This document shows positions 343 to 63,550 of a DNA stretch of 64,000 bases, one piece after another. The DNA comes from Nitrospirota bacterium (lineage in GTDB: Bacteria; Nitrospirota; Thermodesulfovibrionia; UBA6902). The notes below the pieces were generated by a model. It did no database searches. It worked only from the letters and a program-made list of their open reading frames with translations, and was not told the origin of the DNA. How positions within the stretch are numbered: the stretch's first letter is position 1; each line of letters opens with the position of its first letter. The translations under genes were made by a program, and so were the position numbers. The stretch covers positions 35,337 through 99,336 of the forward strand of contig JACRLN010000024.1 of NCBI GenBank assembly GCA_016215115.1. The letters run 5' to 3'.

Positions 343-419
343 AAAATCCCCCTTAATCCCCCTTTTCCAAAGGGGGAGATTCAACCCCTCTTTGAAAAAG
401 AGGGGCAAGGGGAGATTTT
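343..419. repeat. Family A MITE-like repeat, copy 1 (terminal AAAATCCCCC / GGGGAGATTTT, internal CCCCCTTTTCCAAAGGGGG and CCCCTCTTTGAAAAAGAGGGG hairpins)
   Basis: Seen directly. Near-identical architecture recurs at 21563-21638, 53572-53670 and 62295-62445. Confidence 0.8.
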
Positions 420-12388: not shown

Positions 12389-12418
12389 GAGCAAAAATAG
12401 AGTAGAATAAGTACATAA

Positions 12419-12493
12419 GCGCGGAAGAGCAGAAGCGCGGAAGTAAAGAAAATAAAAAGACTTTCGGGCTTTCGGGCTTACGAACTTCCGAGC
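12419..12493. repeat. Family D element: imperfect inverted repeat made of degenerate 7-8-mers (GGAAGAG CAGAAGC GCGGAAG ... ACTTTCG GGCTTTCG ... GAACTTCC)
   Basis: Seen directly between porB and tRNA-Asn. Similar elements at 26421-26510, 37461-37540 and 63481-63550. Confidence 0.7.
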
Positions 12494-14826: not shown

Positions 14827-14905
14827 GTCATTCCCGCATGTCGTTAGCGGGAATCCAGTAATTTCTATCCTCTGGATGCCCGATTAAAGTCCTCGGGCAT
14901 GACAG
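14827..14905. repeat. Family B double-hairpin repeat (GTCATTCCCGC...GCGGGAATCCAG ... GGGCATGACAG)
   Basis: Seen directly. Related copies at 22852-22932, 25689-25806, 29317-29400, 56866-56957, 57420-57512 and 58372-58445. Confidence 0.75.
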
Positions 14906-16675: not shown

Positions 16676-17949
16676 AAAGTCAGCAGTCAGAAACAAGGAG
16701 TAAGGGGTCAGGAATAAGGGGTTTAATTTCAAATTTTAAATTTCAAATTTTTATTTTTTTACTTATTACTTGTCACTTGTCGCTTGTCACTGTTTCTGAC
16801 GCCAAAGTCTACATCGACATCACATCACCTGCTATTCAGAAGCTCCCAATATCAATAACAGCTAAAGGCGCTCCTGAGGCAAAAGAGATTGAGTCGATCA
16901 TAATAAATGACCTTGATTTCACAGGACTATTTTCTTTTGTCGCTCCGGAGGTCCCCGGGGCTGAGATCATTGTGCGATCTGATGTTGATGTTTCATTAAA
17001 TGAAATAACTGTTCTCTGGTCTATCATTGATTTAGTTGAAAACAAAGAAGCGCTCAAGAAACGAAATACCGCATCCAGAAAAAGTATCCGTGCAATAGCC
17101 CATAACATATCAAACGATATTTATAAATTTATAACTGAAAAGGAAGGGGTTTTCAGGACAAAAATTTCCTATCTTGTATCCGTATCACCGGGGAATAAAG
17201 AACTGTATTTAATGGACTGGGATGGATATAGCCCGATAAAGGTAATACCGGTCGGTTTAACCTCAAGTCATGCATGGTCGAATGACAGCCGTTTTCTCAT
17301 ATATTCATCAGAGAGAAACAGGGCCTGGAAGATATATTTCTTCGATATTAATGATTTCAGAGAAATTGTGCTGTTTTCCTCAAACGGACTAAACCTTGTC
17401 GGGAACTCCTCACCGCGGGATGAGATAGCGTTCTCATCATCCAAAGACGGCAATTCAGAAATATATACTATAAATAAAGACGGAAGCAATCTTCGAAAAC
17501 TTACGCATTCATTCGGAATTGATGTTTCCCCGGTGTTTTCTCCTGATGGATCCTCCATAGCCTTAGTATCAGACAGAGGAGGTTCTCCGCAGATATATAT
17601 AATGGATTCAAATGGAAGCGGGATAAGAAGAATAACGTTTGAAGGTTCATATAACACATCTCCCACATGGTCTCCTGACGGAAAATGGATAGCTTATACC
17701 GGAATGAAGGATGGCAAAAATCAGATTTTCATGGTAAAATCTGACGGAACAGGACTAAGACAACTTACTTTCAACGGTAATAACGAAAGTCCATCATTGT
17801 CTCCCGATGGTCTGTTTTTAGCATTTGATTCTGACAGAGATGGCAAGCGCGGTATTTACATTATGCGACTCAATGGAGATGAACAGAGAAGGATTACACC
17901 AAAGGATACAAAAGCCATGGCGCCAAAATGGTCGCCGTATTTTAATTAA
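16672..17949 (+). CDS. tolB: Tol-Pal system beta-propeller protein TolB
   Basis: TolB N-terminal domain plus a WD40-like propeller with repeated SPDG motifs. The N-terminal extension and signal-peptide region are encoded by a 7-mer tandem repeat (ACTTGTC x3). Confidence 0.8.
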   Translation: MKSQQSETRSKGSGIRGLISNFKFQIFIFLLITCHLSLVTVSDAKVYIDITSPAIQKLPISITAKGAPEAKEIESIIINDLDFTGLFSFVAPEVPGAEIIVRSDVDVSLNEITVLWSIIDLVENKEALKKRNTASRKSIRAIAHNISNDIYKFITEKEGVFRTKISYLVSVSPGNKELYLMDWDGYSPIKVIPVGLTSSHAWSNDSRFLIYSSERNRAWKIYFFDINDFREIVLFSSNGLNLVGNSSPRDEIAFSSSKDGNSEIYTINKDGSNLRKLTHSFGIDVSPVFSPDGSSIALVSDRGGSPQIYIMDSNGSGIRRITFEGSYNTSPTWSPDGKWIAYTGMKDGKNQIFMVKSDGTGLRQLTFNGNNESPSLSPDGLFLAFDSDRDGKRGIYIMRLNGDEQRRITPKDTKAMAPKWSPYFN

Positions 17950-20900: not shown

Positions 20901-21545
20901 ATGCTCAAACTCCTGATATTTGACCTTGATGGAACACTTACAGACACAGCTCAGGACATAGCGGATGCAATCAACTATGCATTAAAACCCTTCGGGCAAA
21001 AAATCTATTCGGTAGAGGAGACCAAGGCGATGGTGGGCTCCGGTATTTCAAAGCTGCTTGAATCTCTGCTGCCGGTAAAAGATAACAGATCAAAGGAAAC
21101 AGTTACCAATAGATTCCTTGAATATTATTCCGAGCATCTGCTGGATAATACAAAAGTCTATCCGTATGTAAAAGAGACCTTGTCAAAACTGGATAATTAC
21201 AAAAAGGCGGTAGTGTCTAATAAGAGAGAAGCTTTTTCAAAAAGTATACTCGAGGGACATGGAATCTTAGAGTTCTTTGATATAGTCTTCGGCAGCGACA
21301 GTGTGCCGGAAAAGAAGCCTTCTCCGGTCCCGATATTGAAACTTTTGGAAAAATTTCATGTCACTTGTGACGAAGCAGTAATAATAGGAGACAGTAATTA
21401 TGATATTGAAGCAGGTAAGGCTGGGGGGATCAAAACCATTGCTGTTACATATGGCTTTCGCAGCAGGGAAGTCCTGAAAGACGCAGACTTCATAATTGAC
21501 AGTTTTGATGAATTGTTGAATGTTCTTCCTAAAATCAATGAATAG
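20901..21545 (+). CDS. HAD-superfamily hydrolase (phosphoglycolate phosphatase-like)
   Basis: HAD motif I LLIFDLDGTLTDT, motif II-like S/T, and the C-terminal GDSxxD motif (IIGDSNYDIEAG). Confidence 0.7.
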   Translation: MLKLLIFDLDGTLTDTAQDIADAINYALKPFGQKIYSVEETKAMVGSGISKLLESLLPVKDNRSKETVTNRFLEYYSEHLLDNTKVYPYVKETLSKLDNYKKAVVSNKREAFSKSILEGHGILEFFDIVFGSDSVPEKKPSPVPILKLLEKFHVTCDEAVIIGDSNYDIEAGKAGGIKTIAVTYGFRSREVLKDADFIIDSFDELLNVLPKINE

Positions 21546-21562
21546 ATGTAATCATCTTTATA

Positions 21563-21638
21563 AAATCTCCCCTTACCCCTCTTTGCCAAAGAGGGGAATT
21601 AGTTCCCCCTTTGAAAAAGGGGGAGAAAGGGGGATTTT
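21563..21638. repeat. Family A MITE-like repeat, copy 2
   Basis: AAAATCTCCCC TTA CCCCTCTTTGCCAAAGAGGGG ... CCCCCTTTGAAAAAGGGGG AGA AAGGGGGATTTTTT. Flanked by the HAD stop and the methyltransferase start. Confidence 0.8.
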
Positions 21639-22367
21639 TTGAAACAAGAACAAAACGAAACCCTTGACAGCATAAAAGACATAAAGCTGTTTCAGGCAAA
21701 AAACGGTTATCGCTTCAGCGTAGACGCCCTTTTACTTGAAAATTTTATTTCTGCCAAGCGGCTTGAAAAAGGCATTGAACTTGGTACCGGTTCAGGCATC
21801 ATATCAATCTTACTTGCAAAGAGGTTGAAAAGCACAAAAATTATTGCTGTAGAAATTCAAAGCAATCTCGCTGAACGTGCAATAAGAAATGTGAGTCTGA
21901 ATAGTCTTGATGAGAGGATAGAGATACTTCAAAAAGACATCAAGGATTTGAAAAAGATTTATCCGGCCAATAAATTTGACTTTGTATTTTCAAACCCTCC
22001 TTTTAGAAAAACAACGACCGGTCGCTTAAGTATCTACGAAGAACGTGCTGTCGCAAGACACGAGGTTGAAATAACACTCCCTGATTTAATCAGGACAGCA
22101 TCTTATCTGATTAAACATTCAGGGAAGTTTTTCCTGATCTATCATCCCTTCAGACTTGCAGAATTAATAAGCCTCTTGCAAAAAGCAAAACTTGAACCGA
22201 AAAGGATGAGATTTGTACATTCAAAAATGGGCGAGGAGGCTAAAATGGTTTTGATTGAAGCAGTAAAAGGTTCAGGCACATGGCTTAAAATTGCCCATCC
22301 CTTATTTATCTATGAAAAAGGCAGTGAATATACTTCAGAGTTAAAAAAGATTCTTTCGGTACCCTGA
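21639..22367 (+). CDS. N6-adenine-specific SAM-dependent methyltransferase (TrmN6/YfiC-like small methyltransferase domain)
   Basis: SAM-binding GxGxG (ELGTGSGIISILLA) and the catalytic motif FSNPPF. TTG start abuts the repeat, so the start is uncertain. Confidence 0.6.
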   Translation: MKQEQNETLDSIKDIKLFQAKNGYRFSVDALLLENFISAKRLEKGIELGTGSGIISILLAKRLKSTKIIAVEIQSNLAERAIRNVSLNSLDERIEILQKDIKDLKKIYPANKFDFVFSNPPFRKTTTGRLSIYEERAVARHEVEITLPDLIRTASYLIKHSGKFFLIYHPFRLAELISLLQKAKLEPKRMRFVHSKMGEEAKMVLIEAVKGSGTWLKIAHPLFIYEKGSEYTSELKKILSVP

Positions 22368-22778: not shown

Positions 22779-22851
22779 GGCAAGTTGCTACTACTTAGAA
22801 TTACATAGCAAACGAGCCTCTTGCAAAAGTATCGTGAAAATCGCTTTTGCC

Positions 22852-22932
22852 GTCATACCCGCGAAGGCGGGTATCCAGAAGTCTTTGGTTTTATAGAATA
22901 CTGGATTCCCGATAAAGACATCGGGAATGACG
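22852..22932. repeat. Family B double-hairpin repeat copy
   Basis: GTCATACCCGCGAAGGCGGGTATCCAG ... CTGGATTCCCGATAAAGACATCGGGAATGAC. Confidence 0.75.
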
Positions 22933-23030
22933 AATAAAGACTATTGCAAGAGCTTCAAACTACAAGATTAGTTATAATTTATAAGTTGATTTAATAATAT
23001 ATAATTATAACTAAACTTATTTATTTTAGC

Positions 23031-25688: not shown

Positions 25689-25806
25689 TCAAACGCGTGT
25701 CATGCCCGAAGCCTGCCCTCGAATGTCGTAATCGGGGGTCTTTAATCGGGCATCCAGAACTTATTAAAAAGACTGGATTCCCGCTCAACAGACTGCGGGA
25801 ATGACG
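25689..25806. repeat. Family B repeat, extended copy with three hairpins
   Basis: GTCATGCCCGAAGCCTGCCCTCGAATGTCGTAATCGGGGGTC ... GGGCATCCAG ... CTGGATTCCCGCTCAACAGACTGCGGGAATGAC. Confidence 0.75.
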
Positions 25807-26420: not shown

Positions 26421-26510
26421 ACGAGTGAGAAGTAGAAAGTGGGAAGTAAAGAAAGAAAAATTTAATATGCCTTTTTTACTTCTTACCTCTTACTTCCTAC
26501 TTCTTACTTA
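26421..26510. repeat. Family D element: (GAGTGAG AAGTAGA AAGTGGG AAGTAAA GAAAGAA) ... inverted (TTTTTACTTCTTACCTCTTACTTCCTACTTCTTACTTA)
   Basis: Seen directly. A long imperfect hairpin built from heptamer units, sitting between tRNA-Arg and the glutamate synthase genes. Confidence 0.7.
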
Positions 26511-26522
26511 AGGAAAGAAAAC

Positions 26523-29316: not shown

Positions 29317-29400
29317 TGTCATTCCCGCAGTCTGTTGAGCGGGAATCCAGAGTCTTTTTAGAGGGAACTGGATTCCGGCTTAAGGACTGCCGGAATGACA
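29317..29400. repeat. Family B double-hairpin repeat copy
   Basis: GTCATTCCCGCAGTCTGTTGAGCGGGAATCCAG ... CTGGATTCCGGCTTAAGGACTGCCGGAATGACA. About 90% identical to the reverse complement of the copy at 56866-56957. Confidence 0.8.
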
Positions 29401-29440
29401 ACTTTAATAGTATCTTCGGGACAGCGACATCAATTTAACA

Positions 29441-44705: not shown

Positions 44706-44726
44706 GAAAAAGTTTGTAAGATCGTA

Positions 44727-44818
44727 GTAGGGGCGATCCGGTGGATCGCCCCTACGAGAGGACACAAAAAGGGCACGTCGCGACGTGCCCCTACAGGGCG
44801 TATGCCATACGCCCCTAC
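44727..44818. repeat. Family C palindromic (REP-like) repeats, three consecutive palindromes
   Basis: GTAGGGGCGATCCGGTGGATCGCCCCTAC, then the perfect palindrome GGCACGTCGCGACGTGCC, then GGGCGTATGCCATACGCCC. Followed at 44840-44880 by an 8-mer array (CTTTTGCA CTTCTGCT CTTTTGCA CTTTCGCG). Confidence 0.8.
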
Positions 44819-44938
44819 TTTATTGCTTACGCCCTTCCCCGCTTTTGCACTTCTGCTCTTTTGCACTTTCGCGCTCTTGACATTGTTCGGAAATAGCGTA
44901 TGATTTAATATGTAAAGCAAAAAAACAGGAGGTGTGCG

Positions 44939-45358
44939 ATGAAAACTGTAAAACAACTTTTGTTTGCCGCCCTCATAGGGCTTCTCATGGTTTCCGTGGC
45001 AATGGCACAAGAGAAAGCAAGTCAAACTGCCGAGCCGGGCCCAACCACAACCTATCAGGCCAAGTTTCCAATCACCATTCAGGGCGGAGAATATGATATG
45101 AAAACCGTCATAATAGATTTCCCTCAAGGGGTGGGGATGCCTACACATATGCATGGCGGACACGTACTTGTGATAGTACTGAATGGTGAGATGACACTCA
45201 AAGAGAAAGGCACAGAGAGGATAATAAAAGCCGGAGAAAGCTGGACTGAGAATCCCGGCAATCACCACTCAGTCGTCAATGCAGGCTCTACCACTGCCAG
45301 GGTTGTGGTTAACATGCTGCTGCCAAAAGGCGCTGAGGCTACCACGATAATTAAGTAG
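44939..45358 (+). CDS. secreted cupin-domain protein
   Basis: Signal peptide (LLFAALIGLLMVSVAMAQE). A cupin_2-like core (PTHMHGGHVLVIVLNGEM ... NPGNHHS). Confidence 0.6.
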   Translation: MKTVKQLLFAALIGLLMVSVAMAQEKASQTAEPGPTTTYQAKFPITIQGGEYDMKTVIIDFPQGVGMPTHMHGGHVLVIVLNGEMTLKEKGTERIIKAGESWTENPGNHHSVVNAGSTTARVVVNMLLPKGAEATTIIK

Positions 45359-45426
45359 GGGCGATCCGGTGGATTGCCCAAGTGTGGTATCGGGGAAAAA
45401 AGGGCGACCCGCCGGGTCGACCCTAC
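45356..45426. repeat. Family C palindromic repeats (GTAGGGGCGATCCGGTGGATTGCCC ... GGGCGACCCGCCGGGTCGACCCTAC)
   Basis: Seen directly, downstream of the cupin gene. Confidence 0.75.
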
Positions 45427-51591: not shown

Positions 51592-51924
51592 TTACAAATT
51601 TTTCAACCTCACAAAAATCAGCTTGCCTGTCCTTCCTCTTTTGTCCTCTCTTCTGCTTATTGTATTTGTATGAGTATCATAATCGAGCGTCTCCTCTTCA
51701 TAATCCTCCGGCATCAACGTTAATGCCTTATCAATATCGCCCTTGCATAAAAAAGTCAAAGCATCCAGACATATCTCTCCAAGGTTATGCCCTCTGCGGT
51801 CTAATACATACACTGCCCTGCATGTACATATGCCGCCGGTAATCTCAAGTGATTTAATACGAATGTCAACAGGGTTTGCCAGATAATTATCACAAAATGG
51901 ACATTGTAAAGGTTGTCTTCTCAT
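51592..51924 (-). CDS. small cysteine-containing hypothetical protein (CPFC ... CTC ... C...C)
   Basis: 110 aa with an N-terminal zinc-ribbon-like CPFCDN ... GGICTCRAV. Wedged between dsrN and dsrC, overlapping the dsrN stop. Confidence 0.4.
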   Translation of the reverse strand: MRRQPLQCPFCDNYLANPVDIRIKSLEITGGICTCRAVYVLDRRGHNLGEICLDALTFLCKGDIDKALTLMPEDYEEETLDYDTHTNTISRREDKRGRTGKLIFVRLKNL

Positions 51925-53546
51925 GGTTTTATCGAGGTATCCTTAAACTTCCTTGCACATCTCACCAACCCATCCGCCCATTCAGGCGCTCCAATTGCAT
52001 GAAGATGTGTATATGCAGCCAATACATTTTTGTAGCACATTCCGTCTTTGCCATCTACGATACCCTTCCCGCGTCTGACGTTGAATGCAAAATATATTTG
52101 CTCTGAAAATCCCCCTACATCCCCCATTGTAGGGGCGACCCGGCGAGTCGCCCCTACGGTTGAGAGGGGATCTATTTCAAGAACTCGCGAATAATGAAAC
52201 TCATGTCCCTTAAGAACGGTCTTATCGGGAAAGTATTGATTAGCTTTTTCAACCTCAACAATTGTATAACCATGCGCCTGCGGTTTTTTCTCAAGCCCAA
52301 AAGTTATCGGAAGGGCGCCAACCATCGGATATGTCTTGTTGCCTAAAACAAGACTTTTACCAAGATACATCAGCCCGCCGCATTCGGCATATACAGGAAG
52401 CCCGTCCTGAATTGCATCAAACAATGAATTCCTGAAACTTATATTATCAGCCAATGCTATCGCATGTGTTTCAGGGAAACCTCCGCCCATGTAAAGCGCG
52501 TCTATTTCGGGAAGTTTTGTTTCTCTCAGAGGGCTCACTTCGATCAGACTGGCTCCCCTTTTCTCAAGCTCTTCAAAATTCTCCTGGTAGTAAAATTGAA
52601 AAGCAGAATCTCGGATGATACCGATTTTGACTACGGAGCTGGAAGTTGGAGGTTGGGGGTTAGCTTGACCCTTGACACTAATCCCTAATCCCTTATCCCT
52701 TATCCCTGTCTCCAGAGGAGACGCTTCATTGGCAATTTTCAATACTTGATCGATATCAATATATTTCTCTCCTATGTCAGCAACTAATGCCAAAGATTCT
52801 TCAACGTCCTGCCGTTCCTGGAAAGGGGTTAAGCCCATATGCCTTTCAGGAAAAGGGTCTTTCTTTAATCTTGGGATGGCGCCCACCACAGGCAATTTAC
52901 ACCTTTTTTCTATTGCTTTTTTTATCAGGGTCTCCTGCCTGTTTGTCGCAATCTGGTTAAGAACGATACCACCTATTGCAACATCTGCATCCATCTGCTG
53001 GCATCCCAGGACCATTGCGGCAATTGTATTGGTTGCCTTTGTGCAGTCAACAATAATTATTACCGGAGTTTTTAATAATTTGGCCAGTTCAGCGGTGCTA
53101 TAAGTGCCCTCATCATCAACTCCGTCAAACAAGCCCCTATTACCTTCGATGATGGCAATCTGAGTGGAGAGTGGAGAGTTTGGAGTTAGGAGTTCGGATT
53201 CTTTGATTTTGGATTTCAGATTTCGAATTTCGGATCTCAATTCTGTCTTACTTTTGCACTTCTGCACTTTTGCACTTCTGTACTTATCATATGTATGCGA
53301 GATAAAAGACCCAAGCGCCTGCTCCGGCTTCATCATGAAGAGGTCCAGATTGTAACATGGAGTCCCGGCCGTCTTTGCAAGCCAGCCCGCGTCAATATAA
53401 TCAGGCCCTTTCTTAAAAGGTGTAACAAGCAAGCCTCTTTTTCTGAATAAAGAAACAAGACATAAAGAAAGGATAGTCTTTCCGCTCCCACCCCTGAGAC
53501 CGGAAACAACTATCCTTGGTATTGAGAAATTCTGTGATTGGGTCAT
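51921..53546 (-). CDS. dsrN: DsrN, cobyrinic acid a,c-diamide synthase (CbiA/CobB) homolog, putative sirohaem amidase
   Basis: P-loop (VVSGLRGGSGKT), a CobB/CbiA ATPase domain and a C-terminal class-I amidotransferase-like domain (GHEFHYS ... YTHLHAIG). Carries three in-frame repeat-derived segments (52107-52172, 52640-52720, 53160-53290). Confidence 0.8.
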   Translation of the reverse strand: MTQSQNFSIPRIVVSGLRGGSGKTILSLCLVSLFRKRGLLVTPFKKGPDYIDAGWLAKTAGTPCYNLDLFMMKPEQALGSFISHTYDKYRSAKVQKCKSKTELRSEIRNLKSKIKESELLTPNSPLSTQIAIIEGNRGLFDGVDDEGTYSTAELAKLLKTPVIIIVDCTKATNTIAAMVLGCQQMDADVAIGGIVLNQIATNRQETLIKKAIEKRCKLPVVGAIPRLKKDPFPERHMGLTPFQERQDVEESLALVADIGEKYIDIDQVLKIANEASPLETGIRDKGLGISVKGQANPQPPTSSSVVKIGIIRDSAFQFYYQENFEELEKRGASLIEVSPLRETKLPEIDALYMGGGFPETHAIALADNISFRNSLFDAIQDGLPVYAECGGLMYLGKSLVLGNKTYPMVGALPITFGLEKKPQAHGYTIVEVEKANQYFPDKTVLKGHEFHYSRVLEIDPLSTVGATRRVAPTMGDVGGFSEQIYFAFNVRRGKGIVDGKDGMCYKNVLAAYTHLHAIGAPEWADGLVRCARKFKDTSIKP

Positions 53547-53571: not shown

Positions 53572-53670
53572 AAAATTTCCCCCCTTTAAAAAAGGGGGGC
53601 AAGGGGGGATTTTCAAGAAACATATTTTTCTCAAAATCTCCCCTAACCCCTCTTTGTCAAAGAGGGGCAT
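53572..53670. repeat. Family A MITE-like repeat, copy 3 (two tandem sub-units)
   Basis: AAAATTTCCCCCCTTTAAAAAAGGGGGGCAAGGGGGGATTTT ... AAAATCTCCCCTAACCCCTCTTTGTCAAAGAGGGG. Between dsrD and dsrN. Confidence 0.8.
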
Positions 53671-53966: not shown

Positions 53967-54000
53967 TTTGTAGGGGCGACCCGCCGGGTCGCCCCTACAT
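53967..54000. repeat. Family C perfect palindrome TGTAGGGGCGACCCGCCGGGTCGCCCCTACA
   Basis: Seen directly between dsrB and dsrD. Confidence 0.85.
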
Positions 54001-56865: not shown

Positions 56866-56957
56866 AGTTTGTCATTCCGGCAGTCCTTAAGCCGGAATCC
56901 AGTTCCTTATGAAATGACTCTGGATTCCCGCTCAAAAGACTGCGGGAATGACAGACA
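56866..56957. repeat. Family B double-hairpin repeat copy (opposite orientation to the 29317 copy)
   Basis: TGTCATTCCGGCAGTCCTTAAGCCGGAATCCAG ... CTGGATTCCCGCTCAAAAGACTGCGGGAATGACA. ORF-track entries 56861-57091 and 56869-57051 are artefacts of this repeat. Confidence 0.8.
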
Positions 56958-57305: not shown

Positions 57306-57419
57306 CAGATTAGAAGTTTAGCAGATAGAAATTTAAAATTGTAAGGGGGCCTGGCATGCCGTGCCCCTACTGGAAACTGGAAATAAAAACTGTTACAATG
57401 AAACCTCTTGCAAAAATCT

Positions 57420-57512
57420 TTATTTGTCATTCCCGAGGTCTTTATCGGGAATCCAGTATTATTTAGAACAAAAGACCCTCGAATGTCGTAATCGGAGGCG
57501 GGTATGACGGCT
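57420..57512. repeat. Family B double-hairpin repeat copy
   Basis: TGTCATTCCCGAGGTCTTTATCGGGAATCCAG ... CCTCGAATGTCGTAATCGGAGGCGGGTATGAC. Confidence 0.75.
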
Positions 57513-57576
57513 AAAGCGATTTTCATGATACTTTTGCAAAAGGCTCAATGTATAAATTAAAATTTTACAGTAATTC

Positions 57577-58488: not shown

Positions 58489-60675
58489 ATGGAGCGGGAA
58501 AGCAGGATAAAGGACGAAATTATAGGCATCCTTGCCATTCTTATCGGTCTCGTTGTCATCATAAGCATTATAAGCCACAACCGCTGGGATCAATCACTTT
58601 TTACCTATAACACTTATGAATTAAAAAATCTTCTGGGCCGTTTCGGGGCCAACCTATCAGAAATCCTTCTGCAGGCTGTCGGTCTTTCCTCCTATATAAT
58701 TCCAATAATCTTTCTGATTTTTGGAATAAAGAAGGTTTTTGGCAAAGCAACAAACCAGAAACCTGTTTTATTTATTGTTACAGTCGTAATCCTGATTATT
58801 TCAACATCCTCGCTCTTTACTCTTTTCCTCGGAGGTGATTCCGGCGGCGCTGCAGGAGTATTAATAACAGAGCTGACCAATAAAACTGTTTCATCAATCG
58901 GTTCTCTGCTGCTTTTTGCAACCTTAACGCTTGTTTCTCTGATGTACATTATTCAATTCTCTGTAGCAGATCTGGTAAGAAAGACAAAAAGCAAAATAAT
59001 TTTTGGCACCCAGGCAATCTCTGCCGTAGCGGCTAAAAAGAAAGAGAAAGAACAGCCACAAATAAAAGAAAATAGCGCCACTTCTGAAATACCGGTTCAG
59101 CCGGAGATCGCAGAGCCGGTAGAAATGCCGGAAATACCAAGTATTCAGGAGCCCCTGCCTCTTGCACCCGAGGCAAGAATGAAACCAAAAGAAAAACCTT
59201 TTATGAAACCCTCGGAAAAGGTCGAAGGAGATTATAAACTCCCCGGCGTTGATCTTTTAAAAGACCCTTCACCGTCAAAGTCCAAACCTACAAAAGAAGA
59301 GCTGTTACAACAGTCTGAATTGTTAGAGAAAAAACTCCAGGACTATTCAATTGAAGGAAAAGTCACTTATGTGTCCCCCGGTCCGGTTGTAACAATGTTT
59401 GAATTCGAACCTGCGCCGGGCATTAAGATCAATAAAATCATGTCTCTTTCAGATGACCTTGCAATGGCGATGAAGGCAACGAGCATCCGCATTTCACCAA
59501 TACACGGCAGGTCCACGCTCGGCATCGAAGTGCCAAATCAGGAACGAGAAGATGTTTGTTTGAAAGAGCTTATTGTCTCTGATATATTCAGGAAAAGCCC
59601 TTCAAAATTGACCATCGCTCTCGGGAAAGACATATTCGGAACGCCTGTCATGGCGGACCTGAGCAAGATGCCTCATCTTCTTATTGCCGGAGCAACCGGC
59701 TCCGGTAAAAGCGTTGGAATGAACAGCATCGTGTTAAGCCTTTTATACAGGGCGACGCCAAAAGAAGTTAAGATGCTTATGATTGACCCCAAGATGCTTG
59801 AGCTCTCCGCTTATGCTGAAATTCCGCATCTTCTCATGCCTGTCATTACCTTGCCAAAAGAAGCTTCAAATGCGCTGAAGATGCTGGTATTTGAGATGGA
59901 GCGGCGTTACAGGCTTCTCGCAGAATCAGGGGCCAGGAACATCGAGACATACAATAAGAAATTTGAAATTTCAAATTTCAAATTTCAAATTAAAGAATCA
60001 GATTTTGAATCTCATTCTGCAACTGAACGTGAACCTCTCCCCTATATCGTTATCTTCATCGACGAACTTGCCGACCTCATGTTTGCGTCAGGACACGAAG
60101 TGGAAGACTCTATTGCGCGTCTGGCGCAGATGGCGCGGGCCGCCGGAATACACCTGATCCTGGCAACGCAAAGACCGTCTGTTGATGTAATCACGGGAAT
60201 AATAAAAGCTAACTTTCCATCAAGGATATCTTTTCAGGTCTCATCGAAACTGGACTCCCGGATAATCCTCGATACATACGGTGCAGATCAATTGTTAGGC
60301 AAAGGCGACATGCTCTTTGTCAGTCCGGGCAAAAAAATCAAAAGAATTCACGGCGCATATGTGAGTGAAGAAGAAATGAAACATGTTGTGGATTTTATTA
60401 AGACACAGGGCGGGCCTGATTATACATTGTTCGAGGATATTACCATTGAATCACGGGAAGGGGAGTTATCTGAGGACAAAGATGAACTCTATCTGCAGGC
60501 AAAAGATATTGTGCTGTCCACCGGTCAGGCGTCGATTTCATATATACAGCGCAGGATGAAAATAGGATACAACAGGGCAGCAAGGATTATGGAAATGCTC
60601 GAAGAAGAAGGCGTTGTCGGCCCTCCGGGTGAAGCTGGGAAACCAAGGGAGATATTATGGAAGAGAAAACAATGA
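58489..60675 (+). CDS. ftsK: DNA translocase FtsK/SpoIIIE
   Basis: Four N-terminal TM helices, a Pro/Glu linker, the motor domain (Walker A AGATGSGKSVGMNS, Walker B IVIFIDELADLM) and a C-terminal winged-helix gamma domain. Contains a heptamer-repeat-derived segment at about 59950-60010. Confidence 0.85.
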   Translation: MERESRIKDEIIGILAILIGLVVIISIISHNRWDQSLFTYNTYELKNLLGRFGANLSEILLQAVGLSSYIIPIIFLIFGIKKVFGKATNQKPVLFIVTVVILIISTSSLFTLFLGGDSGGAAGVLITELTNKTVSSIGSLLLFATLTLVSLMYIIQFSVADLVRKTKSKIIFGTQAISAVAAKKKEKEQPQIKENSATSEIPVQPEIAEPVEMPEIPSIQEPLPLAPEARMKPKEKPFMKPSEKVEGDYKLPGVDLLKDPSPSKSKPTKEELLQQSELLEKKLQDYSIEGKVTYVSPGPVVTMFEFEPAPGIKINKIMSLSDDLAMAMKATSIRISPIHGRSTLGIEVPNQEREDVCLKELIVSDIFRKSPSKLTIALGKDIFGTPVMADLSKMPHLLIAGATGSGKSVGMNSIVLSLLYRATPKEVKMLMIDPKMLELSAYAEIPHLLMPVITLPKEASNALKMLVFEMERRYRLLAESGARNIETYNKKFEISNFKFQIKESDFESHSATEREPLPYIVIFIDELADLMFASGHEVEDSIARLAQMARAAGIHLILATQRPSVDVITGIIKANFPSRISFQVSSKLDSRIILDTYGADQLLGKGDMLFVSPGKKIKRIHGAYVSEEEMKHVVDFIKTQGGPDYTLFEDITIESREGELSEDKDELYLQAKDIVLSTGQASISYIQRRMKIGYNRAARIMEMLEEEGVVGPPGEAGKPREILWKRKQ

Positions 60676-61409
60676 AAAAACAGTCAGCGGTAGGCAGCCA
60701 AAAAAATAAAGCAGAAGGTAAGAAGATAAGAAGATGGGAGGATAAGAAATCTCCACTTCTCAACTTCTTAACTTCTCAACTTCTCATACTCTGTTTACTT
60801 GTCACTTGTCACTTGTCACTTGTCACTATTGTTCATGCTGCCACCGTCGACGAAATTGTCAACGACATCCAGAAGAAGTTAGCTGAGATTCATGACATGA
60901 AAGGCACATTCTCTCAAACAAGCTATCTCAAAGATCTCGAGAAAACAGAAACGTATGCAGGCACATTTTACATAAAAAAACCTTCCGGTATAATGTGGGA
61001 ATATATACCCCCCCGCGATGAAAAAATTATAATTAACGGGACGGAAACGTGGGCTTACAAAAAGTCACAAAAACAGGCAATAAAAACCAGATTCAGCAAA
61101 GAAGCGTATAGCCAGGTCCCTATAGCATTGTTAAACGGTCTCGAAAATCTCGGTGCTGATTTTGACATAACGATCATGGAACAGGACACGCTGCATTTGA
61201 AGCCAAAACATCAGATGGGATTCATTCAGGAGATAATCCTCAAGACAAGCTCCAGGAATTTCCCTGTAAAAATGCTTAAAGTATTGGACGTGTACGGCAA
61301 TAAAATTACCATAGAACTCACAGATATAAAAACTAACAATGGACTTGATGATTCACTTTTTACTTTTACAGCGCCTCCGGGAGTTGAGGTGTTTGATATG
61401 ACCCAGTGA
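60657..61409 (+). CDS. lolA: outer-membrane lipoprotein carrier protein LolA (LolA-like fold)
   Basis: Signal peptide, then an open beta-barrel-type sequence (GTFSQTSYLKDLEKTETYAGTFYIKKPSGIMWEY). The start is uncertain (60657 or 60672). The N-terminal extension and signal h-region are encoded by an (ACTTGTC)x4 array. Confidence 0.65.
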   Translation: MEEKTMKKQSAVGSQKNKAEGKKIRRWEDKKSPLLNFLTSQLLILCLLVTCHLSLVTIVHAATVDEIVNDIQKKLAEIHDMKGTFSQTSYLKDLEKTETYAGTFYIKKPSGIMWEYIPPRDEKIIINGTETWAYKKSQKQAIKTRFSKEAYSQVPIALLNGLENLGADFDITIMEQDTLHLKPKHQMGFIQEIILKTSSRNFPVKMLKVLDVYGNKITIELTDIKTNNGLDDSLFTFTAPPGVEVFDMTQ

Positions 61410-61459
61410 AGAATAGCCCGGAAGTGCTGAAGAGCGGAAGTTCATAAGCAAAAGAGGAA

Positions 61460-62275: not shown

Positions 62276-62294
62276 AAGATAACAGTTTCTTGAA

Positions 62295-62445
62295 AAAAAT
62301 CCCCCTGCATCCCCCTTTTTCAAAGGGGGACATTTTTCCCCTCTATTAAGAGGGGTTAGGGGGGTGTTCCCCTCTTTGGCAAAGAGGCTGGGCTCCCGTT
62401 GCAGCGAAGCATCGCAACGGGAAGTGGGGAGATTTTTAAAACTAT
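62295..62445. repeat. Family A MITE-like repeat, copy 4 (largest; extra GC hairpin CCCGTTGCAGCGAAGCATCGCAACGGG)
   Basis: AAAAATCCCCC ... CCCCCTTTTTCAAAGGGGGA ... CCCCTCTATTAAGAGGGG ... CCCCTCTTTGGCAAAGAGG ... GGGGAGATTTTT. Confidence 0.8.
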
Positions 62446-62566
62446 ACCTTTGAAGCAAATTTACATGCATGATATTTTTGGTTGCAATAATTTTTTTTTA
62501 TGGTATAAGATAATCACGTGGTTAAAATGCAGTATAAATAATATTATTTTAAGAAAGGAGGATTTA

Positions 62567-63064
62567 ATGGGAAAAATCAGACTCGTAACAACAATCACTT
62601 GCGCAGCGCTGCTATTGCTAAGCACAGCCATATATGCAGCGGATGACATCCAGAAACAGGTTGACGATATCAGGGGTGCATTGCCCAAATTCGCCGTTCC
62701 GATGCGGGAAGTGGGCGACAGGTTCCAGAACATGTATTTCGCAGCAAAGGAAGGAAACTGGGCTCTGGCGGCATACATGTCCAAATACATGGACAAAGCG
62801 ATGAACCCTGCTAAGGTAACCAAGCCTACTGAATACGAAGCATGGAAGACATTTTATGCTGAAACTTTTGCCCCTGTGAATAAGGCAATACAGGCTCAGG
62901 ACATGAAAGCCTTCGAAAAGGAGCATAACGCTGTGATTCAGCACTGCAATAACTGTCATGCTGGTATGGGTTACGGTTTTATTAAAGTCATCAAGATGCA
63001 GACACCTGCCGATGCGGGGATTGACTACAAAGTAACATCAAAGGCAACCGACGTTCCAAAGTAA
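62567..63064 (+). CDS. periplasmic cytochrome c'-like (class II, four-helix-bundle) haem protein
   Basis: AAGGAGG ribosome-binding site and signal peptide (LLLLSTAIYAADD). A single CxxCH (CNNCH) near the C-terminus, about 165 aa. The ORF-track start at 62399 is unlikely. Confidence 0.55.
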   Translation: MGKIRLVTTITCAALLLLSTAIYAADDIQKQVDDIRGALPKFAVPMREVGDRFQNMYFAAKEGNWALAAYMSKYMDKAMNPAKVTKPTEYEAWKTFYAETFAPVNKAIQAQDMKAFEKEHNAVIQHCNNCHAGMGYGFIKVIKMQTPADAGIDYKVTSKATDVPK

Positions 63065-63272
63065 AAGGTTTAAGAAACTTTAATAAGCCACGGATACCGA
63101 AAGTATCCGTGGCTTATTTTATCCTATTATAATCAGGGACAAAAATCCGGTCTAAAAACTTGTAATTGAAATGGGTGTGTGATAGATTACCAGGCCGGTT
63201 TTACTATATGAGAATTCTTTGAAGATAAATATTATTTAGAATTGAGCAATCAATATTATTTGAGGAGGTTTT

Positions 63273-63428
63273 ATGGAGATTAATTATATGCTGAAAATTC
63301 AGGATGCAAAGGCTGTAGATATACAGAAAGCCTTGCAGGCTGCCAACATTAAAGTCACAAGCATCACTGAGATTTATAAAGAAAAAGGGGAAGAAGCTAC
63401 GCCTGCAGCACCTCAAGCGAATGCATAA
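63273..63428 (+). CDS. possible small protein (51 aa)
   Basis: GAGGAGG ribosome-binding site 6 bp upstream of the ATG. No homolog recognised, and it could be non-coding. Confidence 0.25.
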   Translation: MEINYMLKIQDAKAVDIQKALQAANIKVTSITEIYKEKGEEATPAAPQANA

Positions 63429-63480
63429 TCTCATCATATTGAATATATAATATAAATACCACAGAGACACGGAGTATAAA

Positions 63481-63550
63481 GTTCGGAAGCACGGAAGTTC
63501 AGAAGTTGGGAAGCCTTTTACTTCCGAGCTTCCAGACTTCCGCACTTTTC
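63481..63550. repeat. Family D element (CGGAAGCA CGGAAGTT CAGAAGTT GGGAAGCC TTTT ACTTCCGA GCTTCCAG ACTTCCGC ACTTTTC)
   Basis: Seen directly. An inverted array of GGAAG/CTTCC-containing 8-mers. The ORF 63204-63545 is an artefact. Confidence 0.7.

Follow-up and report, generated by a model that had tools for sequence, protein, structure and literature searches.

A 33-nt unit with a potential purine-motif triplex fold underlies an interspersed repeat of Nitrospirota and many other bacteria

Introduction

A 64,000-nucleotide stretch of a Nitrospirota bacterium (assembly GCA_016215115.1, contig JACRLN010000024.1, positions 35,337 to 99,336), referred to below as the window, carries four copies of a short, hairpin-rich repeat that we call family A. 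A sequence-only reading of this DNA had described the repeat as an element resembling a miniature inverted-repeat transposable element (MITE), in which inverted termini flank two internal hairpins. This raises the question of what the repeating unit of family A is, what its conserved ends are for and how it came to lie between the genes that now surround it. Intrastrand triplex repeats, known as BoxC, PIT or TM elements, have been recognized since the 1990s. We find that the basic unit of family A is a 33-nt module and not a 77-nt MITE bounded by inverted repeats, and, judging from its sequence, we consider it likely that this interspersed repeat is built from units that are potential purine-motif (class II) intrastrand triplexes.

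Results

Architecture of the repeat unit

Family A is indeed an interspersed repeat present in several copies. The window contains four matches to the hairpin pattern CCCCTCT..AGAGGGG, eight to CCCCCTTT..AAGGGGG and eight to a combined terminus-plus-hairpin pattern, compared to 0.00 matches for each in dinucleotide-preserving shuffles. The four loci reported earlier are real, with coordinates that we correct to 343-419, 21562-21638, 53572-53670 and 62296-62436 (the last previously given as 62295-62445). According to open reading frame (ORF) calls and Pfam matches, all of them sit between co-directional genes, namely infB and DUF503 (copy 1), a HAD hydrolase and a methyltransferase gene (copy 2), dsrD and dsrN on the minus strand (copy 3), and a polysaccharide deacetylase gene and the gene following it (copy 4).

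Read along the G-rich strand, the unit consists of a pyrimidine arm CCCCYCTTT, a 3-nt loop, a purine arm AAAGRGGGG, a second 3-nt loop and a third block GGGGRGATT (33-mer 5'-CCCCTCTTTGAAAAAGAGGGGCAAGGGGAGATT). On the C-rich strand, the same module appears as AAAATC(T)CCCC, three nucleotides and the hairpin CCCC(T)CTTT - loop - AAAG(A)GGGG. Two subtypes occur, type a with an interior T/A and type b with a run of five or six C, and their geometry is the same once the extra T/A pair is counted. In every case, the end block is the mirror image of the neighbouring hairpin arm and never its complement. It runs antiparallel to the purine arm, where only G.G-C, A.A-T and T.A-T triads are possible. In the type a module of copy 1 (385-417, plus strand; CCCCTCTTT-GAA-AAAGAGGGG-CAA-GGGGAGATT; stem 9, loops 3/3, no mismatches), for example, the order of triads is four G.G, A.A, G.G, A.A, T.A and T.A, all nine of them compatible with the purine motif. 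The ATT of the conserved 'ATTTT' tail extends the triads across the AAA foot of the stem; because the triad rule fits this end as well, the tail is part of the third strand.

The published ITxF criteria for intrastrand triplexes call for a stem of 6-15 nt, at most one mismatch if the stem exceeds 7 nt, and loops of 1-6 nt (PMC4666352). An ITxF-like triplex finder, written for the present analysis, returned eight hits in the window and none in 30 Markov-1 simulated windows. Seven of the hits are full 33-nt modules and the eighth is a module with seven triads; all have the class II block order, in which a pyrimidine-rich block is followed by the complementary purine-rich block and the reverse-Hoogsteen block. 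The seven full modules without exception show a 9-3-9-3-9 layout (stem 9, loops 3/3, no stem mismatches) with no triad mismatch.

The modules are combined differently at the four loci. Copies 1 and 2 are the same 77-nt dimer, one inverted relative to the other (a repeat search aligned 81 nt with 85% complementarity); in each, a type a and a type b module form a pair whose AAAAT ends face outward. In copy 1 (343-419, between the infB stop at 295 and the DUF503 ATG at 428), an inverted pair of unlike modules, the type a module is preceded by a type b module at 345-377 on the minus strand (G-rich strand TCCCCCTTT-GGA-AAAGGGGGA-TTA-AGGGGGATT; stem 9, loops 3/3, no mismatches). Copy 2 has its type a module at 21564-21596 on the minus strand (9/9 triads, loops 3/3) and its type b module, located by the triplex finder, at 21604-21636 on the plus strand. 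Copy 3 is a b+a pair whose third-strand (AAAAT) ends point inward across a 19-nt spacer, with a C6-variant module at 53579-53611 on the plus strand (CCCCCCTTT-AAA-AAAGGGGGG-CAA-GGGGGGATT) and a type a module at 53635-53667 on the minus strand. The description of shared termini flanking two hairpins does not fit copy 3, where two modules have their termini turned toward each other. Copy 4 is larger and does carry an additional GC hairpin, as had been noted, but it comprises three hairpin units: a type b module at 62298-62330 on the minus strand (9/9 triads), a shortened type a module at 62338-62367 on the plus strand (CCCCTCT-ATTA-AGAGGGG-TTAGG-GGGGTGT; stem 7, loops 4/5, no mismatches) and a third, type a unit at 62369-62436 on the plus strand. 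The last is split by a 38-nt insert between its hairpin (CCCCTCTTTGGCAAAGAGG, 62369-62387) and its third block (GGGGAGATTTT, 62426-62436), and the GC hairpin (CCCGTTGC...GCAACGGG, 62395-62421) lies inside this insert. A further site at 1903-1932 on the plus strand, between two minus-strand genes (CCCTCT-GAA-AGAGGG-ATGA-AGGAGATTTT; 5/6 triads), could be a decayed module, a weak candidate for which chance is also possible.

Other structures were considered for the same sequence. A pyrimidine-motif triplex on the C-rich strand, which could also form in RNA, was discarded: it would reach only seven triads and need protonated C, and it is contradicted by T opposite A. A G-quadruplex or i-motif was rejected because each strand of the dimer holds only three G-runs or C-runs of at least four.

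Covariation of the third block with its hairpin

Modules from other genomes were pooled in a census of 209 sources (1.67 Mb), made up of genome loci from many phyla and of viral contigs, in which every perfect 9-bp pyrimidine/purine hairpin was scored with the best third block on each side. The triad scores per hairpin side were bimodal, with a background peak at 3-5 and a separate group of 309 sides scoring 9/9 and 27 sides scoring 8/9. The first loop measured 3 nt in 278 of these 336 modules and the second in 271 of 336. Among the 27 distinct purine arms, 25 had a fully compatible (9/9) commonest third block, compared to 0.7% of pairings when third blocks were set against non-cognate arms. 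Examples of arms with their third blocks are AAAGGGAGG with GGAGGGATT, AAGGAGGGG with GGGGAGGAT or GGGGAGGTA, GGGGGAAGG with GGATGGGGG, and GGGAGAGGG with GGGTGAGGG. Where the purine arm has an interior A, the opposing third-block position was A in 231 cases, T in 24, C in one and G in none. This equivalence of A and T is the rule of the purine motif and is predicted neither by a plain mirror repeat nor by the pyrimidine motif. The 27 arm variants that follow the triad rule are comparative evidence for a third-strand constraint acting at the DNA level.

Several points weigh against a triplex-forming unit. Each variant may be one multiplied subfamily, so that the number of independent covariation events is nearer 25 than 300, and the pattern used for the genome and viral scans had already fixed much of the type a and type b variants; the unconstrained evidence for covariation comes from the partner modules and the other variants within the same loci. 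When folded with Watson-Crick pairs, single-stranded DNA of copy 1 forms a three-way junction closed by its ends (-24.5 kcal/mol, z -5.1; the type a hairpin at 385-417 alone gives -8.1 kcal/mol), a value from ViennaRNA, which considers Watson-Crick pairs only and does not represent triplexes. For the E. coli triplex repeat TM_ECO, a stable triplex was seen for the isolated strand in vitro only, and none in duplex DNA or by dimethyl sulfate footprinting in vivo (PMC4666352). Finally, the clean insertion of copy 2 between two 4-bp direct copies of TGAA would fit a transposase acting in trans as well.

The block symmetry also bears on whether family A might be the binding site of a conserved DNA-binding protein, such as a nucleoid- or replication-associated factor, with the blocks as its half-sites. 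In keeping with such a site, both the sequence and its spacing show very strong conservation among phyla. However, mirror-symmetric blocks are inequivalent in duplex DNA and could not be read as half-sites by a symmetric protein, the blocks vary freely within the triad rule (27 variants), which conservation of a recognition sequence would forbid, and no associated gene was found at 120 loci. We regard a protein-binding site as hardly credible.

Ends of the element

We then considered family A as a classical MITE, a 77-nt dimer with terminal inverted repeats that would be mobilized by a trans-acting transposase from another locus and in which the hairpins would be incidental or serve protein binding. 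The census contained 58 inverted pairs, of which 52 combined unlike types, as do all pairs of the window (type a with type b). The two possible arrangements, outward-facing and inward-facing, were equally common with 29 pairs each, and a further 175 modules were single, having one end and no partner. Across the 52 unlike-type pairs, the ends obeyed the triad rule with their own hairpin at a mean of 8.96/9, whereas the two ends of a pair agreed at no more than 5-8 of 9 positions. That the ends fit their own hairpin better than each other argues against end-to-end pairing as the conserved feature. AAAATC(T)CCCC and GGGG(A)GATTTT accordingly do not behave like classical terminal inverted repeats, with which the single modules and the reversed copy 3 agree: what had been read as 'inverted termini' are the third blocks that two unlike modules contribute when they lie in opposite orientations.

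The MITE explanation does draw support from other features, namely the insertion of copy 2, the variable presence of copies between close relatives, and a Logan contig of the same organism (L123, found by look-up of the HAD protein) that ends inside the copy 2 element, as expected of a multi-copy repeat. In other Nitrospirota, moreover, the same a+iii dimer sits at the centre of a longer element that has outer inverted repeats of its own (...GTCTCATAAT...ATTATGAGAC...), and at least 80 viral contigs of IMG/VR, potential vehicles, carry the module. Against it stand, besides the behaviour of the ends, the single modules and the even split of pair arrangements, the left boundary of the one mapped insertion, which lies 19 nt outside the supposed terminus, and the absence of a transposase or any other recurrent protein family within ~4 kb of 120 loci. 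Clustering of the ORFs at these loci yielded no recurrent transposase or RAYT and only common signalling proteins, a weak negative that covers the neighbourhoods of these loci. A single family with a near-identical 33-nt core in more than 15 phyla would also lack precedent. The label 'MITE-like' is thus supported in part, by one insertion with a short direct duplication but not by the terminal repeats or the insertion edge, and we consider a classical MITE unlikely.

History of the individual loci

For copy 2, the ancestral state could be reconstructed. In four relatives (L124, L125, L126 and L128; HAD protein 79-88% identical; alignment A1), the HAD and methyltransferase genes overlap by ~17-20 nt and have no spacer, with an empty site reading ...AAAATCAA|TGAA|ACAAGAA.... 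In the window, a clean 97-nt insertion at 21543-21639 has entered this overlap, consisting of the 19-nt sequence TAGATGTAATCATCTTTAT, the 77-nt dimer (21562-21638) and one T. The alignment with the relatives places the two copies of the TGAA target duplication at 21539-21542 and 21640-21643 on the plus strand. This single mappable insertion, with its 4-bp duplication, gives no sign of the 2-bp TA-like target duplication that the sequence-only reading had suggested looking for. The 19-nt flank has no second occurrence in the window, so that no donor copy is identifiable. Compared by eye, the flank agreed with the inner arm of the longer element of other Nitrospirota at 8 of 14 positions, a similarity too weak to support a claim.

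The insertion remodelled both genes. It supplies a TAG stop for the HAD gene at 21543-21545, shortening the protein by three residues, and it replaces the ATG start of the methyltransferase gene by TTG (21639-21641). The TTG aligns exactly with the ancestral ATG, and the GGGGGA block of the type b module lies 5 nt upstream of it as a Shine-Dalgarno-like sequence; TTG 21639 is thus probably the real start. Two copies had been said to abut start codons and to mislead the ORF caller into false starts. Both do abut start codons, and at DUF503 the mechanical start TTG 392, inside the element, is indeed spurious, the true ATG being at 428 as in L121 and L122; for the methyltransferase, the supposedly false start is the one just described as probably genuine.

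The spacer that holds copy 1 also varies. In L121 and L122, which encode an identical DUF503 protein, the infB-DUF503 spacer contains other repeats and no family A, with an GTCATTCCCGC-type element in L121 and 8-nt periodic repeats in L122 (1-40). On the far side of DUF503, the window encodes a ribbon-helix-helix (RHH) antitoxin and a PemK/MazF toxin (832-1385), and strains with the identical DUF503 have rbfA directly next, which suggests that this toxin-antitoxin pair beside copy 1 is a strain-specific insertion or rearrangement.

Copy 4, the composite, lies at the left end of ~940 bp (62276-63212) that L211 lacks, having a ~70-nt spacer there instead. In other relatives, the site is occupied by family B repeats (L209) or by GTAG-headed palindromes (L210, L215), two further repeat families described below. 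The segment 62276-63212, bordered by the deacetylase gene and by a small conserved gene (MEINYMLK..., 63273-63428), holds an ORF (62567-63061) whose N-terminus resembles a signal peptide and which matches nothing in Pfam; a hairpin with a T-run follows this ORF at ~63087-63120.

Copy 3 is common to the window, L219 and L220 (DsrN 85-87% identical, alignment A2), and a fourth lineage, L221, has a family B repeat in its place. Its type a module has the same sequence in all three lineages, its type b module shows loop changes and one arm change in L220, and the spacer between the modules has diverged with indels. On this comparison, copy 3 is older. Three of the four loci (1, 2 and 4) are hence polymorphic between close relatives, and the 76 kb of L124-L128 contain no family A module, compared to eight in the 64-kb window. 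Look-ups with the exact DsrD and deacetylase proteins gave no match.

Possible roles at the RNA level

A further explanation is that family A acts as RNA, forming mRNA hairpins that serve as terminators, attenuators or 3'-end stabilizers between operon genes in the manner of REP hairpins. The position of all four window loci between co-directional genes fits this idea, as do the stability of the hairpins and the terminator-like scores of the copy 4 hairpins, which depend on the flanks. The best case is the dsrD-dsrN locus, where the copy 3 hairpin at 53579-53611 is followed on the minus strand by AAATTTTTTG, a terminator-like arrangement whose T-run, behind the second hairpin on the transcribed strand, is kept in three lineages. 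An intrinsic terminator, however, has a GC-rich hairpin and a U-run within 0-2 nt, in the direction of transcription, and family A as such does not have this form: its canonical T-run starts ~10 nt past the hairpin, and a terminator consensus scan made no call at copies 1 and 2. The earlier comparison with intrinsic terminators therefore applies only to the second hairpin of copy 3, in dependence on its flank, and not to copies 1 and 2.

Orientation and pairing rules point the same way. Single modules lie in one orientation relative to flanking co-directional genes in 15 cases and in the other in 21, showing no orientation bias; by crude ORF calls, the modules are mostly intergenic. An RNA-level role leaves the covariation of the third block and its A/T equivalence unexplained, as the purine motif is stated not to form in RNA (PMC4666352), and the E. 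coli PIT elements have neither promoter nor terminator activity (PMC4666352). Nor does family A correspond to a described Rfam family: only two tRNAs passed in the window (gathering threshold and E <= 1), and at copy 2 there were solely matches to eukaryotic miRNA precursors (E 0.57), far below gathering and attributable to chance similarity of hairpins. An RNA-level function is thus improbable for the family, although copy 3 may provide a terminator, one plausible co-opted function.

Distribution across phyla and viruses

The copies are not unique to the window. Searches with the module pattern in GTDB, where each species was represented by one genome, and in IMG/VR found the module in at least 120 genome stretches and at least 80 viral stretches. 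Among the matches listed are Nitrospirota, many Desulfobacterota/Thermodesulfobacteriota, Methylococcaceae and other Gammaproteobacteria, including the isolate Muribacter muris; Dehalococcoidia (Chloroflexota), Ignavibacteria/Kapaibacteria, Omnitrophota, Myxococcota and Methylomirabilota; and Acidobacteriota, Binatia, Elusimicrobia, Nitrospinota, Parcubacteria (candidate phyla radiation, CPR) and a Chamaesiphon cyanobacterium. Near-identical 9-3-9-3-9 units thus occur in more than 15 phyla. Because several matches lie on megabase contigs or complete chromosomes, binning artefacts cannot explain this spread. A literature search found no paper describing the family A sequence, and a search by sequence strings returned irrelevant eukaryotic matches only.

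Some of these loci show larger arrangements. In L042 (5364, 5913) and L102 (3771, 3948), modules lie within tandemly duplicated blocks with identical flanks 549 nt and 177 nt apart, respectively, and L069 (885-960) contains head-to-tail arrays of modules with a 40-nt period. In nine other Nitrospirota loci (L018, L026, L029, L050, L059, L061, L081, L100 and L110), the a+iii triplex dimer is the core of a ~170-nt element with outer inverted repeats of its own (e.g. ...AGGGTCTCATAATTGAATGGACAT ... ATGTACACCTTATTATGAGACTATTAAT) and TTAATAA-rich ends.

Mosaics with other repeat families

The sequence-only reading had also proposed that family A recombines or co-mobilizes with other repeats, citing a partial terminus fused to a family C palindrome inside dsrN. 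The fusion is confirmed, and family A is mosaic with the other repeat families of this genome: relatives hold family B or C repeats at family A sites, and a partial module (AAAATCCCCC TACAT CCCCC, plus strand) is fused to the GTAGGGGCG...CGCCCCTAC palindrome at 52106-52125 (given before as 52107-52130), in frame within dsrN (minus strand, ...MGDVGGFSEQ...). Among the relatives, P0124 has the palindrome part only, P0123 a degenerate module in this position, and P0122, P0125, P0130 and P0144 neither.

DsrN of the window (51921-53546, minus strand) has 541 residues and its relatives have 464 to 561; the alignment shows two variable in-frame insert sites. The first consists of 8-nt periodic repeats at ~53212-53285 (read as ...KVQKCKSKTELRSEIRNLKSKIKESE...) and the second of the family C palindrome with the family A fragment (...GATRRVAPTMGDVGGFSEQ...). 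As the inserts are in frame, the repeat elements are translated as loops of a dsr-operon enzyme.

The other families have their own loci in the window. Family B comprises GTCATTCCCGC...GCGGGAATCCAG hairpins in longer units (14827-14859, 22814-22955, 25766-25805, 29317-29409, 56869-56953 and 57402-57546), with arm pairs of 85 nt (94% complementary) and 75 nt (88% complementary). In relatives, it is found exactly at family A sites, between infB and DUF503 in L121, after the deacetylase gene in L209 and between dsrD and dsrN in L221. Family C consists of GTAG-headed, REP-like palindromes, (T)GTAGGGGCGACCCGNCGGGTCGCCCCTAC, at 44725-44755, 45353-45426, 52127-52157 and 53968-53998; one lies in frame within dsrN, and in L210 and L215 such a palindrome directly follows the deacetylase stop. 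The window and its relatives further contain short intergenic tandem arrays with a period of 8 nt, sometimes 7 nt (AAGCGCGG AAGAGCAG..., CTTCTGCA CTTTTGCA..., TCACTTG TCACTTG...), in the window at 12409-12451, 16725-16794, 26431-26511, 44818-44876, 59960-60006, 60715-60830, 61422-61448 and 63479-63547.

Discussion

Intrastrand triplex repeats were described as BoxC, later as PIT elements (Hoyne et al. 2000) and then as TM_ECO (Holder et al. 2015) (PMC4666352). TM_ECO has the consensus 5'-CCCTCNCCC N3-6 GGGNGAGGG N3 GGGNGAGGG and is a class II purine motif whose stems measure 9 nt and whose second loop measures 3 nt; it lies exclusively between genes, shows no strand bias and has been reported in Proteobacteria but not on mobile elements (PMC4666352). 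E. coli K-12 carries five inverted pairs, each of one type A and one type B unit, and TM loci are far more variable between strains than control loci (PMC4666352). As far as sequence comparison can tell, family A is a new sequence family of this known BoxC/PIT/TM structural class, with every testable architectural and genomic feature in common. The two share the order of blocks on one strand, 9-nt stems, the 3-nt second loop (the first loop being 3-6 nt in this comparison) and G.G-C, A.A-T and T.A-T triads. Both occur singly or as inverted pairs of unlike type (52 of 58 for family A), are intergenic without strand bias (15 vs 21 for family A singles) and are hypervariable in copy number and location, as seen from the differences at copies 1, 2 and 4 and the replacement of copy 3 in a fourth lineage.

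What differs is, above all, the sequence. Family A has CCCCYCTTT / AAAGRGGGG arms with an A/T-run foot and an ATT(TT) tail in place of CCCTCNCCC / GGGNGAGGG, and the TM_ECO consensus has no match in the window, which puts family A outside that sequence family. TM_ECO-like units (GGGAGAGGG...GGGTGAGGG) are present in the same sets of environmental loci as family A. In contrast to TM_ECO, family A is found in Nitrospirota, in many non-proteobacterial phyla and on viral contigs, it includes one precise insertion with a 4-bp duplication, and in some Nitrospirota its dimer is the core of a longer element with terminal inverted repeats.

Other repeat classes share less. REP, BIME and REPIN sequences, which are mobilized by RAYT transposases, are likewise extragenic palindromic units of 20-40 nt that occur singly or as inverted doublets in high copy number, vary between strains and often follow stop codons directly. 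However, family A lacks a GTAG-type head, which family C of the same window does carry, and its mirror-related third block has no counterpart in REPs; each REP is specific to a species, but the family A unit is nearly identical across phyla, and no RAYT gene was found near the 120 family A loci. H-DNA resembles family A in its homopurine/homopyrimidine mirror symmetry, in the same (reverse) Hoogsteen triads and in its link to genome instability. The blocks of family A, in contrast, all lie on one strand and combine an inverted with a mirror repeat; folding therefore needs a single strand and not the supercoil-driven extrusion of H-DNA. MITEs such as Correia, Nezha and Chunjie are similarly small, multi-copy and intergenic and can alter gene ends and expression signals, and one family A copy shares their short target duplication. 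They differ in that family A has a modular unit, ends that match poorly as terminal inverted repeats and no known cognate transposase.

We infer that triplex folding of the G-rich strand keeps the unit conserved and at the same time makes its surroundings unstable. Wherever replication, repair or a transcription bubble leaves this strand transiently single-stranded, the pyrimidine and purine arms would form a hairpin, and the third block could then fold back into its major groove. Such triplex structures would stall polymerases and thereby promote slippage, template switching and illegitimate recombination. Stalling of this kind may lead to rapid gain, loss, truncation and fusion with other repeats while the units themselves stay intact.

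How the units spread can be approached from two sides. A transposase acting in trans is the main rival explanation for spreading and fits both the TGAA duplication and the longer Nitrospirota element; template switching induced by the triplex is the alternative and would account for the 19-nt flank. The two ideas are compatible with each other. A more speculative proposal, to which we give a rather small chance, is that the 33-nt unit is the propagation signal of a pan-bacterial, partly phage-carried mobile DNA that moves as folded single-stranded DNA, either by an enzyme that reads the triplex or by template switching into stalled forks. If true, it would explain the units in more than 15 phyla and in viruses, the insertion with its 4-bp duplication, the pairing of unlike types and the persistence of intact units amid changing flanks.

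In terms of function, the copies look like selfish or neutral structural DNA and not like RNA genes, and their effects on neighbouring genes look incidental. Copy 2, an insertion with exact boundaries, gave two overlapping genes a new stop, a Shine-Dalgarno-like block and a TTG start. For genome annotation, the lesson is that the units create spurious ORF starts (translated as ...PPF.KGG.GG(I/D)F...) and break short-read assemblies. In sum, the 9-3-9-3-9 architecture, with a new sequence, reaches far beyond Proteobacteria and includes viral contigs. Although the structural class has been described before, the reach of family A across phyla, the covariation of its third block and the mapped insertion should be useful for studies of non-B DNA and of bacterial repeats.

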